NCBI RefSeq assembly: GCF_003334385.1
Contig: NZ_QOWN01000011.1
From: Escherichia coli
GTDB lineage: Bacteria > Pseudomonadota > Gammaproteobacteria > Enterobacterales > Enterobacteriaceae
DNA length: 64,000 nt
Direction: 5' to 3' (one strand)
Below the pieces are notes generated by a model that was not told where the DNA came from, did not search any database, and saw nothing but the letters and a program-made list of their open reading frames with translations. This document shows positions 7,390 to 61,319 of this stretch, one piece after another (positions within the stretch are counted from its first letter, which is position 1; each line of letters begins with the position of its first letter). The translations under genes and the position numbers were made by a program.

Positions 7390-10542
<3,153 letters not shown>

Positions 10543-60673: not shown

Positions 60674-60705
60674 AAATGCCGGGATTTATTCCCGGCATTT
60701 CTGAT
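60674..60705 (+). terminator. intrinsic terminator of tsx
   Basis: atgccggg-atttat-tcccggcat hairpin followed by ttctgatt, 7 nt after the tsx stop. Confidence 0.7.
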
Positions 60706-60730
60706 TGTTAACAACGTGTGCTTTGTTCAT

Positions 60731-60829
60731 GCCGGATGCGGCGTAAACGCTTTGTCCGGCCAACAAAAGCACGTAAATTCAATATATTGCTGAAATAACG
60801 TAGGCCTGATAAGCGTAGCGCATCAGGCA
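60731..60829. repeat. BIME: two REP units
   Basis: gccggatgcggcgtaaacgctttgtccggcc (60731-60761) and gtaggcctgataagcgtagcgcatcaggca (60800-60829) between convergent tsx and yajD. Confidence 0.85.
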
Positions 60830-60843
60830 ATTTTACGTTTTAA

Positions 60844-61191
60844 TCACTTCTTCTTGTTCATCATCGCTTTCAGGTCAGCGAATGGGTTGTACTTCGCTTC
60901 ACCGACATCTTTCTGCGCATCTTCCCCTGCGATAACGGTCGTACCATACTGATCCGCTTCGGTATATTTCGAATGCTCATGATCGTGGCAATAGAGACAC
61001 AACAATTCCCAGTTACTGCCATCTTCCGGGTTATTGGTATGGTCGTGATCAATGTGGTGAACGGTAAGTTCACGCAGGTTGGAATAAACAAACTCGCGGG
61101 AACAGCGACCGCAGACCCACGGATAGATTTTTAATGCTTTTTCGCGATAGCCGCTTTCTAACCGCGCATAGTTTTTTGGGATGATAGCCAT
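60844..61191 (-). CDS. yajD: HNH-endonuclease-family protein YajD
   Basis: 115-aa ORF MAIIPKNYARLESGYREKALKIYPWVCGRCSREFVYSNLRELTVHHIDHDHTNNPEDGSNWELLCLYCHDHEH; Cys/His-rich HNH-like motif. Confidence 0.92.
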   Translation of the reverse strand: MAIIPKNYARLESGYREKALKIYPWVCGRCSREFVYSNLRELTVHHIDHDHTNNPEDGSNWELLCLYCHDHEHSKYTEADQYGTTVIAGEDAQKDVGEAKYNPFADLKAMMNKKK

Positions 61192-61266
61192 GAAAAGTTA
61201 CCTGGATGAAATGTAGGGTTACGCGCAGTTTCCCAAGATGCGGGGATTTTCGCAATCTCCATACAT

Positions 61267-61299
61267 CAAAAAAAATCCCGATCTTCTGACCGGGATTTT
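61267..61299 (-). terminator. intrinsic terminator after secF
   Basis: On the minus strand, stem atcccg/cgggat followed by T8, about 20 nt after the secF stop. Confidence 0.6.
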
Positions 61300-61319
61300 C
61301 AACATCAACGGGAACTTGA

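Follow-up and report, generated by a model that had tools for sequence, protein, structure and literature searches.

Phage T4 endonuclease VII is a nuclease specific for DNA structure, with junctions and mismatches as its targets. The HNH nicking enzyme of Geobacter metallireducens (Gme HNH; Gmet_0936, PDB 4h9d) is a stand-alone protein that nicks DNA weakly, non-specifically and in a Mn-dependent manner, with a preference for damaged DNA (PMC3765158). HlpB of Bacillus subtilis is a chromosomal HNH orphan, small and conserved, that has no partner gene; as summarised in the same report, it binds DNA, showed no cleavage in vitro, is essential unless addAB is deleted and has a proposed role with DNA repair or recombination intermediates (PMC3765158). 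Here we describe YajD, which resembles HlpB in being small, conserved, chromosomal and without a partner gene, and which is encoded by yajD in a 64,000-nucleotide stretch of an Escherichia coli genome (RefSeq assembly GCF_003334385.1, contig NZ_QOWN01000011.1; hereafter the window).

Both gene and family carry names and annotations already, the HNH domain is ordinary, and YajD is not a new kind of system. A first-pass annotation of the window had called its function uncharacterised, and our literature search agrees: it returned no biochemical or genetic study of YajD function, only a Salmonella deletion without a single-mutant phenotype and data on a transcription pause and a terminator. We tentatively propose that YajD is a metal-dependent nuclease with His46 as the general base, which would act on DNA without sequence specificity (probably by nicking damaged, single-stranded or branched DNA) and would be recruited or restrained by its C-terminal tail and the linker that precedes it. 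We regard this combined proposal as plausible, a little short of probable; catalytic activity, taken by itself, seems somewhat probable.

The HNH core and active site of YajD

The yajD open reading frame (ORF) occupies positions 60844–61191 on the minus strand, where the first-pass annotation had placed it, and runs from ATG over 115 codons to TGA, both in the ORF listing and in the raw letters (plus-strand CAT at 61189–61191 and TCA at 60844–60846). The 115-amino-acid translation, MAIIPKNYARLESGYREKALKIYPWVCGRCSREFVYSNLRELTVHHIDHDHTNNPEDGSNWELLCLYCHDHEHSKYTEADQYGTTVIAGEDAQKDVGEAKYNPFADLKAMMNKKK, contains every one of the Cys/His motifs that had been quoted for it, namely CGRC (C27–C30), HHIDHDH (H45–H51) and CLYCHDHEH (C65–H73). 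E. coli K-12 MG1655 is 100% identical to the window, and RefSeq names exactly this coding sequence (CDS) ‘yajD: HNH nuclease YajD’.

Profile and structure searches both place yajD among stand-alone HNH-family genes. The NCBIfam model NF008448 (‘YajD family HNH nuclease’, PRK11295) matches residues 2–113 over 113 model positions at 210.3 bits, against a cut-off of 87, and the Pfam HNH model PF01844 matches residues 27–75 (E = 1.5e-12); the Pfam scan showed no domain beyond HNH and, in particular, no DNA-recognition domain. A first AlphaFold2 model, made with 25 close homologues, was too poor for use (predicted local distance difference test (pLDDT) score of 56). A second model, made with 62 diverse family members, reached a pLDDT of 76.6 overall and 80–90 over residues 11–80, with a helix at residues 8–22, strands at 42–46 and 61–65 and a long helix at 66–82. 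The only known structures that match this model are HNH nucleases, with Gme HNH as the top Foldseek hit (E = 0.046), and its structural neighbours in the AlphaFold database, which come from many Gammaproteobacteria and from Magnetococcus, all bear the name ‘Putative HNH nuclease YajD’. YajD has the beta-beta-alpha-metal fold of the HNH (His-Me finger) nucleases of PF01844, an assignment that we regard as practically certain.

To compare residues, we used alignments of gammaproteobacterial YajD (A1), of the whole family (A2) and of distant members (A3), which together span Enterobacterales to Desulfobacterales and Nitrospira. The N-terminal helix (codons 8–22, 61126–61170, minus strand; pLDDT about 80–89) carries a conserved Y15-R16-E-x-A-L-K motif, in which R16 is at least 90% conserved across the family, and aligns with the N-terminal helix of T4 endonuclease VII. 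The HNH core follows (codons 24–75, 60967–61122, minus strand), with a putative structural zinc site formed by the Cys4 set C27, C30, C65 and C68, the pair H45–H46 ending strand 1, and H69, E72 and H73 on the helix. The loop between the two strands of an HNH domain is usually variable; in the YajD family, the inter-strand loop D48-H49-x-H51-x-N-N-P-x-D-G-S-N60-W-E is conserved, and almost invariant in A2 and A3.

Across these alignments, C27, C30, H45, H46, D48, H51, N60, C65, C68, H69, E72 and H73 are invariant or at least 90% conserved. H46, N60 and H69 are all invariant in A1 and A3; in A2, N60 is invariant and H46 and H69 are at least 90% conserved. The four cysteines are all invariant in A3 and at least 90% conserved in A2, and in A1 C30, C65 and C68 are invariant and C27 is at least 90% conserved. 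Many family members have Gly at the position of H49, whereas H46, N60 and H69 are not replaced; H49 is therefore not essential.

The probed active-site residues of Gme HNH are D53-H54, which end strand 1, N68, and N77 right after the second CxxC pair (C73 and C76) (PMC3765158). YajD follows the same register, with H45–H46 ending strand 1, N60 placed five residues ahead of C65 and H69 as the residue that follows C68, and the spacing of H46, N60 and H69 is identical to that of H54, N68 and N77. YajD has a general-base His at the end of strand 1, a structural Asn, a metal-ligand His after the second CxxC and two CxxC pairs, and its predicted active site is intact on the available evidence. The loss of the catalytic histidine or of the metal site, which the first-pass annotation had named as a refutation, was not seen after structure prediction and search, and these residues are kept across the family. 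The two proteins differ in other respects, and YajD does not belong to the Gme HNH family: Gme HNH is 17–19% identical to YajD and was missed by sequence search, its active site reads D-H...N...N where that of YajD reads H-H...N...H, and it has neither the conserved DHxH-NNPxDGSNWE loop of YajD nor the C-terminal peptide.

T4 endonuclease VII is the best PDB sequence match of YajD other than zinc fingers (E = 0.008 over 59 residues). The two have in common an N-terminal helix, CxxC, H-[LI]-D-H-D-H, LLCxxC-[NH]-x-x-E and a Cys4 zinc site, and the Asp/His/His/Asn/Glu cluster of the phage enzyme presumably corresponds to D48, H49, H51, H69 and E72. YajD nevertheless falls outside the T4 endonuclease VII family (Pfam PF02945, E = 3); it ends 42 residues earlier and has a disordered linker in place of the junction-binding domain. 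The HNH domain of human ZRANB3 is 19% identical to YajD and, unlike it, forms part of a large helicase-like protein.

No full-length YajD was found in phage records. The best phage matches, 47–51% identical over YajD residues 27–85, are HNH homing endonucleases of 150 amino acids that are encoded between DNA polymerase gene fragments in rV5-like phages (Av-05 gp135 and phiTE gp009). Their sequences share CxRC, VHHxDHD-TNN and ELLCxxCHxxEH with YajD, and a core of the YajD type is thus one that working nucleases use; the likeness hints at a shared origin. In contrast to YajD, the phage proteins have an extra N-terminal domain, carry Arg in place of H51 and are without the PxDGS insert, the acidic linker and the tail.

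Conservation, C-terminal peptide and proposed activity

The description of yajD as a core gene is borne out by its presence once, at one locus, in 5,425 of 5,426 complete E. coli genomes. Compared with Escherichia albertii, the non-synonymous divergence (dN) is 0.007 and the synonymous divergence (dS) is 0.53, a ratio of 0.014; compared with other Enterobacterales, dN is 0.02–0.06 and synonymous sites are saturated. The gene is under very strong purifying selection (dN/dS of about 0.01–0.03). An exhaustive search of 1.84 billion cluster representatives recovered 640 clusters at E ≤ 1e-3 and 291 at E ≤ 1e-10, and relatives with 50–65% core identity occur in Desulfobacterales, deltaproteobacterial metagenome-assembled genomes, Metallibacterium, Pseudomonas, Thiothrix, Magnetococcus and Nitrospira.

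The core is followed by a variable, acidic, low-complexity linker (codons 76–98, 60898–60966, minus strand; pLDDT 55–68). Across the family this linker has 20–29 residues and a mean net charge of −3, is rich in Ala, Glu, Asp, Gly and Ser, and is the most variable part of A1 and A2. Family alignments then define a conserved C-terminal peptide of 17 residues, EAKYNPFADLKAMMNKKK (codons 99–115, 60847–60897, minus strand), in which N102, P103, F104, A105 and L107 are invariant in A1. The family motif, [TI]-[YH]-x-P-F-A-[DNG]-L-x-x-[LM]-[LM]-[KN]-x-K, ends 4–10 residues from the C terminus and is carried by 235 of the 342 distinct family members with an intact core (Pro, Phe and Leu in 100%, Ala in 95%); many of the remaining members are frameshifted or truncated metagenomic calls. 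The motif is absent from a Nitrospira-type subfamily and from the phage relatives. Five Nitrospira-type relatives are tail-less and have HHKDGNH in place of HHIDHDH, and proteins of this type end, unlike the main family, in a conserved H-S-R-G-x-L-G-D-Y-L, which may be an alternative interaction or dimerization element.

Docking motifs typically take the form of an invariant short peptide that a disordered linker joins to a domain, and the YajD tail, judged by this layout, looks like such a motif. A membrane-targeting amphipathic helix was considered for the tail and is not favoured: specific residues are invariant and a generic membrane helix has no need of Pro-Phe-Ala, which favours docking to a protein. 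With a hydrophobic moment of 0.30, the E. coli tail does not stand out from shuffled sequences. Because ZRANB3 offers an analogous layout of an HNH domain plus a PCNA-binding peptide, one may speculate that P-F-A-x-L-x-x-[LM][LM]-K-x-K on its acidic linker is an undescribed docking motif. A housekeeping HNH nuclease that is near-universal in Proteobacteria would then be held at a conserved machine, such as the replisome or sliding clamp, and YajD would be an unrecognized bacterial nuclease that processes forks or damage. We consider this extension a long shot; the tail presumably matches neither the AlkB homologue 2 PCNA-interacting motif (APIM) nor the bacterial clamp-binding consensus QL[SD]LF.

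In the mechanism that we propose, YajD would be a small cytoplasmic stand-alone HNH protein in which C27, C30, C65 and C68 hold a structural zinc and His46, at the end of the first strand, serves as the general base. The catalytic divalent metal would be held by His69, with Glu72 and His73 in support, and by His45, Asp48 or both; Asn60 would brace the hairpin. Non-specific DNA cleavage is the most likely activity because YajD has no sequence-recognition domain; the protein would nick or cut DNA without sequence specificity, probably where it is damaged, single-stranded or branched, by analogy with the Gme HNH nicking enzyme, the structure-specific T4 endonuclease VII and ZRANB3. The acidic disordered linker and the invariant C-terminal peptide would restrain or direct this activity by docking YajD to a conserved cellular partner, and, because there is no inhibitor gene, it is probably the rest of the protein that keeps the activity safe. 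Such a protein may have a housekeeping role in genome maintenance.

A weak genetic hint in favour of the proposed nuclease comes from Salmonella, in which cbpA/yajD and ychN/yajD double mutants are sensitive to H2O2 (PMC3878590). Several observations weigh against it. The Salmonella single deletion has no growth, stress or mouse-virulence phenotype (PMC3878590), and our literature search found no nuclease assay of any member of the YajD family. The activity of Gme HNH is itself weak (PMC3765158), and an intact motif is no proof of activity: as summarised in the same report, stand-alone HlpB keeps the HNH motif yet only bound DNA, with no cleavage, in vitro. The net charge of YajD is −4, a slight acidity that is unusual among proteins that bind DNA non-specifically. 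Members of the Nitrospira-type subfamily have no such tail, the docking partner is only putative, no gene-neighbourhood link between yajD and DNA repair was found, and the active-site geometry comes from sequence register and secondary structure rather than from model coordinates.

HlpB also supplies the model for a different explanation, in which YajD is a non-catalytic, HNH-like nucleic-acid binder that, like HlpB (YisB), binds DNA in single-stranded and double-stranded form and, leaving it uncut, protects or remodels intermediates of recombination or replication. We consider this unlikely. All catalytic and metal ligands are under very strong selection over large distances, which is more than binding requires; the net acidic character of YajD counts against a binder as well, and the HlpB model (NCBIfam NF058586) gives YajD only 13.4 bits against a cut-off of 130, outside that family. 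The two proteins also belong to different His-Me finger groups, group 15 as against the large PF01844/COG1403 group (PMC5714182), and differ genetically, in that a yajD deletion is viable in Salmonella without a single-mutant phenotype whereas HlpB is essential unless addAB is deleted.

A further explanation directs YajD at RNA or at a ribonucleoprotein machine, for example a stalled ribosome or a transcription complex, with the Lys-rich C-terminal peptide as an anchor. Members from Gammaproteobacteria and Desulfobacterales are 50–65% identical in the core, a very high value for a protein of 115 amino acids and one typical of contacts with universal machines; the tail is conserved, basic and C-terminal; and some His-Me finger nucleases cut RNA (PMC5714182). 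Expression of yajD is growth-phase and sigma-70-like, and in stationary phase its mRNA is about fourfold higher in an rpoS deletion than in the wild type (PMC3923258, supplement 8). Even with these points, we judge action on RNA to be distinctly improbable and prefer the DNA nuclease proposed above.

Chromosomal position and mobile relatives

In the window, as in MG1655, yajD is flanked by tsx, which is convergent, and by secF, which lies upstream on the same strand. The other neighbours in the window are yajI, nrdR, ribD, ribE, nusB, thiL and secD, housekeeping genes only, and no methylase, immunity gene, integrase, transposase or mobile element was seen near yajD there, as the first-pass annotation had said. 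Its placement of yajD beside secDF is right for the window and holds in MG1655, but the adjacency is peculiar to a few genera.

We surveyed gene context at loci from 80 gammaproteobacterial species (L001–L080, with yajD at about 8001–8345 in most). The order secD-secF-yajD-tsx occurs in this survey only in Escherichia, Pseudocitrobacter, Phytobacter and Kluyvera; Salmonella also has secDF-yajD-tsx, with an Ldr toxin gene inserted before tsx. In Klebsiella and Citrobacter the order is chitinase-yajD-yeaC-msrB-gapA, contexts of their own are found in Pectobacterium, Serratia, Rahnella, Yersinia, Budvicia, Edwardsiella, Photobacterium, Shewanella and Colwellia, and Vibrio species differ from one another. 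Even under lenient single-linkage grouping, in which any shared neighbour within three genes joins two loci, the 80 species fall into at least 36 context groups. No neighbour family recurs across these groups, the 20 named neighbours that we sampled are unrelated housekeeping genes with no functional theme, and no small partner ORF (25–90 amino acids, within 600 bp, clustered) recurs outside single genera. Three contexts from Desulfobacterales or other deltaproteobacteria and one from an unclassified metagenome are all different. The adjacency to secDF is limited to Escherichia, Salmonella and a few other genera and therefore has no functional meaning, and we reject a functional link between yajD and secDF.

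Strong conservation of yajD thus goes with a variable chromosomal position. DNA similarity between yajD loci stops at the ends of the CDS, and a subset of loci shares about 100 nucleotides upstream, which cover the promoter and 5′ untranslated region. These limits, together with saturated synonymous divergence, indicate old relocations of a self-contained promoter-plus-CDS unit rather than recent transfer. No repeats or integrases were found at yajD loci, and we reject a recent mobile unit.

Records of yajD on plasmids do not point to plasmid-borne spread. The inspected Salmonella and Klebsiella ‘plasmid’ records are pieces of chromosome, and the E. coli records are 1.2–4.9 Mb in length. Most of the other plasmid records are from Pantoea (130–930 kb), and the inspected megaplasmid pPag1 carries ordinary chromosomal-type genes. 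The remaining case is a Vibrio-type yajD on the IncC plasmid pNDM_FZP3105 of Proteus mirabilis (locus L092, 7042–9433), which lies directly downstream of a Qnr pentapeptide-repeat gene, adjoins an alcohol dehydrogenase gene and sits between two ISCR1 copies. Identical tblastn statistics (74.5% identity over residues 8–113) were obtained on Providencia, Morganella and Vibrio furnissii plasmids. The IncC segment is probably a captured fragment of a Vibrio chromosome, carried as a passenger. In one of the Salmonella records, from serovar Bredeney (CP082688, a ‘plasmid’ that is a linear 238-kb piece of chromosome), an Ldr-family type I toxin gene stands at 9786–9893 of locus L090, where K-12 has repetitive extragenic palindromic (REP) repeats.

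The relocations raise the question of whether YajD is a selfish or conflict element: a free-standing homing endonuclease, whether domesticated or still mobile, or else a toxin or an effector against phages. In favour of this, its nearest relatives in phages are homing endonucleases that lie within DNA polymerase genes, chromosomal position varies between genera, promoter and CDS appear to have moved as a unit, the anti-phage defence search (PADLOC) gave weak matches to the HNH part of ZorE, and a Vibrio-type copy lies between ISCR1 elements on IncC plasmids. Against this, yajD is universal, single-copy and at one locus in E. coli, its dN/dS and saturated synonymous divergence imply that the relocations are old and the constraint host-like, and DNA similarity ends at the CDS or about 100 nucleotides upstream of it. 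The protein has no DNA-recognition domain, the loci show no integrase, transposase, repeats, recurrent partner, small ORF or defence-system partners, and the plasmid copies reduce to a passenger next to qnr, a Pantoea megaplasmid and mislabelled pieces of chromosome. We consider it very improbable that YajD is such an element.

Comparisons with named HNH systems gave the same picture. The flanking genes tsx and secF, and the lack of a recurrent neighbour in the 80 species, do not fit restriction-modification or toxin-immunity HNH genes. Free-standing homing endonucleases are not matched by a protein with no extra domain that is universal and single-copy in E. coli and has a dN/dS of about 0.01–0.03, and yajD does not lie beside terminase genes as do phage terminase-associated HNH genes of the HK97 gp74/GVE2 type. 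The model for IscB and RNA-guided HNH proteins (NCBIfam NF040563) matches the HNH segment only, at 20.3 bits against a cut-off of 175. An anti-phage defence role was tried and rejected: the PADLOC match to ZorE covers a 55-residue HNH domain (E = 4e-7), and no ZorABCD-like genes are neighbours.

YajD has seven His and four Cys in 115 residues, clustered in HHIDHDH and CHDHEH. Residues 24–51 (61039–61122), P-W-V-C-G-R-C-x-R-E-F...L..L.V-H-H..H, resemble the eukaryotic C2H2 zinc-finger consensus; C2H2 zinc fingers are the top PDB sequence matches of the YajD family profile, with SALL4 fingers (E = 3e-4) ahead of any nuclease. The resemblance is probably at the level of the fold, from a shared beta-beta-alpha shape. 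It is scarcely credible that YajD serves mainly to bind metal, whether as a buffer or sensor of zinc or nickel or as a regulator of the C2H2 zinc-finger kind, with His segments that have no part in catalysis. The C2H2 likeness can be aligned only across a two-residue gap and would follow from the common shape, the four cysteines are arranged and spaced as in solved HNH enzymes, H49 is often Gly whereas H46, N60 and H69 are not replaced, and no metal-regulon context or neighbours occur among the sampled loci.

Transcription unit and biological significance

The yajD gene forms a separate transcription unit, and its strongest transcription start site (TSS), at 429800 of U00096.2, is assigned to sigma-70 (Cho et al. 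2014 supplement, PMC3923258). Our conversion places this site at about 61220 in the window, plus or minus 2 nucleotides, within a promoter and short 5′ untranslated region at 61192–61262 (minus strand). The main TSS is about 29 nucleotides 5′ of the ATG, and the ribosome-binding-site (RBS) region is CCAGGTAAC. A consensus promoter scan gave no strong sigma-70 match upstream of yajD. A sigma-32 heat-shock promoter, suggested by the resemblance of CTTGGGAAA...CCCTACATTT, was dropped because the mapped TSS lies inside its supposed −10 element and is assigned to sigma-70. Several weaker yajD TSSs lie inside secF (PMC3923258, supplement 8), and a NusG-suppressed, hairpin-influenced transcription pause occurs inside yajD (PMC10268239).

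Upstream of yajD, the intrinsic terminator hairpin of secF (61271–61300, minus strand; 13 pairs followed by a T-run) marks the boundary with the yajC-secDF operon, and yajC, secD and secF are likewise a separate transcription unit (Cho 2014, PMC3923258). Downstream, where tsx and yajD converge, a single GC-rich hairpin at 60674–60700, found on the plus strand, has a T-run on either strand and is probably, from its sequence, a bidirectional terminator shared by both genes. In vitro work has validated an intrinsic terminator downstream of yajD (PMC12207403), which may be this hairpin. Between the yajD stop codon and the hairpin, 60714–60840 consists of REP-type repeats; a 631-bp query that includes this segment has a median of 17 places per E. 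coli genome. An Rfam scan found no structured RNA family near yajD, and 60714–60840 gave weak, sub-threshold matches to the REP-derived small RNA families naRNA4 and ES036.

Some Enterobacterales loci with unrelated neighbours share an upstream element, TTTCTCCTT...CCATT..GGGATATATTGG...TAACAGGTAACA, in which GGGATATATTGG is −10-like and TAACAGGTAACA is the RBS region. The element was seen at about 7890–8000 in eight of the surveyed loci, which encode proteins starting MALIPKNY. At the same upstream place, Rouxiella, Candidatus Pantoea persica and Enterobacter sp. Bisph1 have the palindrome GCAGGCTAGCCTGC. The element or the palindrome may be a regulatory site.

YajD is among the most strongly conserved E. 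coli genes still without a tested function, and its complete nuclease active site is tolerated by the cell without any inhibitor gene. The catalytic residues, the tail motif and the lack of a genomic partner now provide handles on its function. Should YajD prove to be an active nuclease under the direction of a partner, bacterial genome maintenance or, with lower likelihood, RNA quality control would gain a component, and the YajD tail would define a new recruitment peptide.

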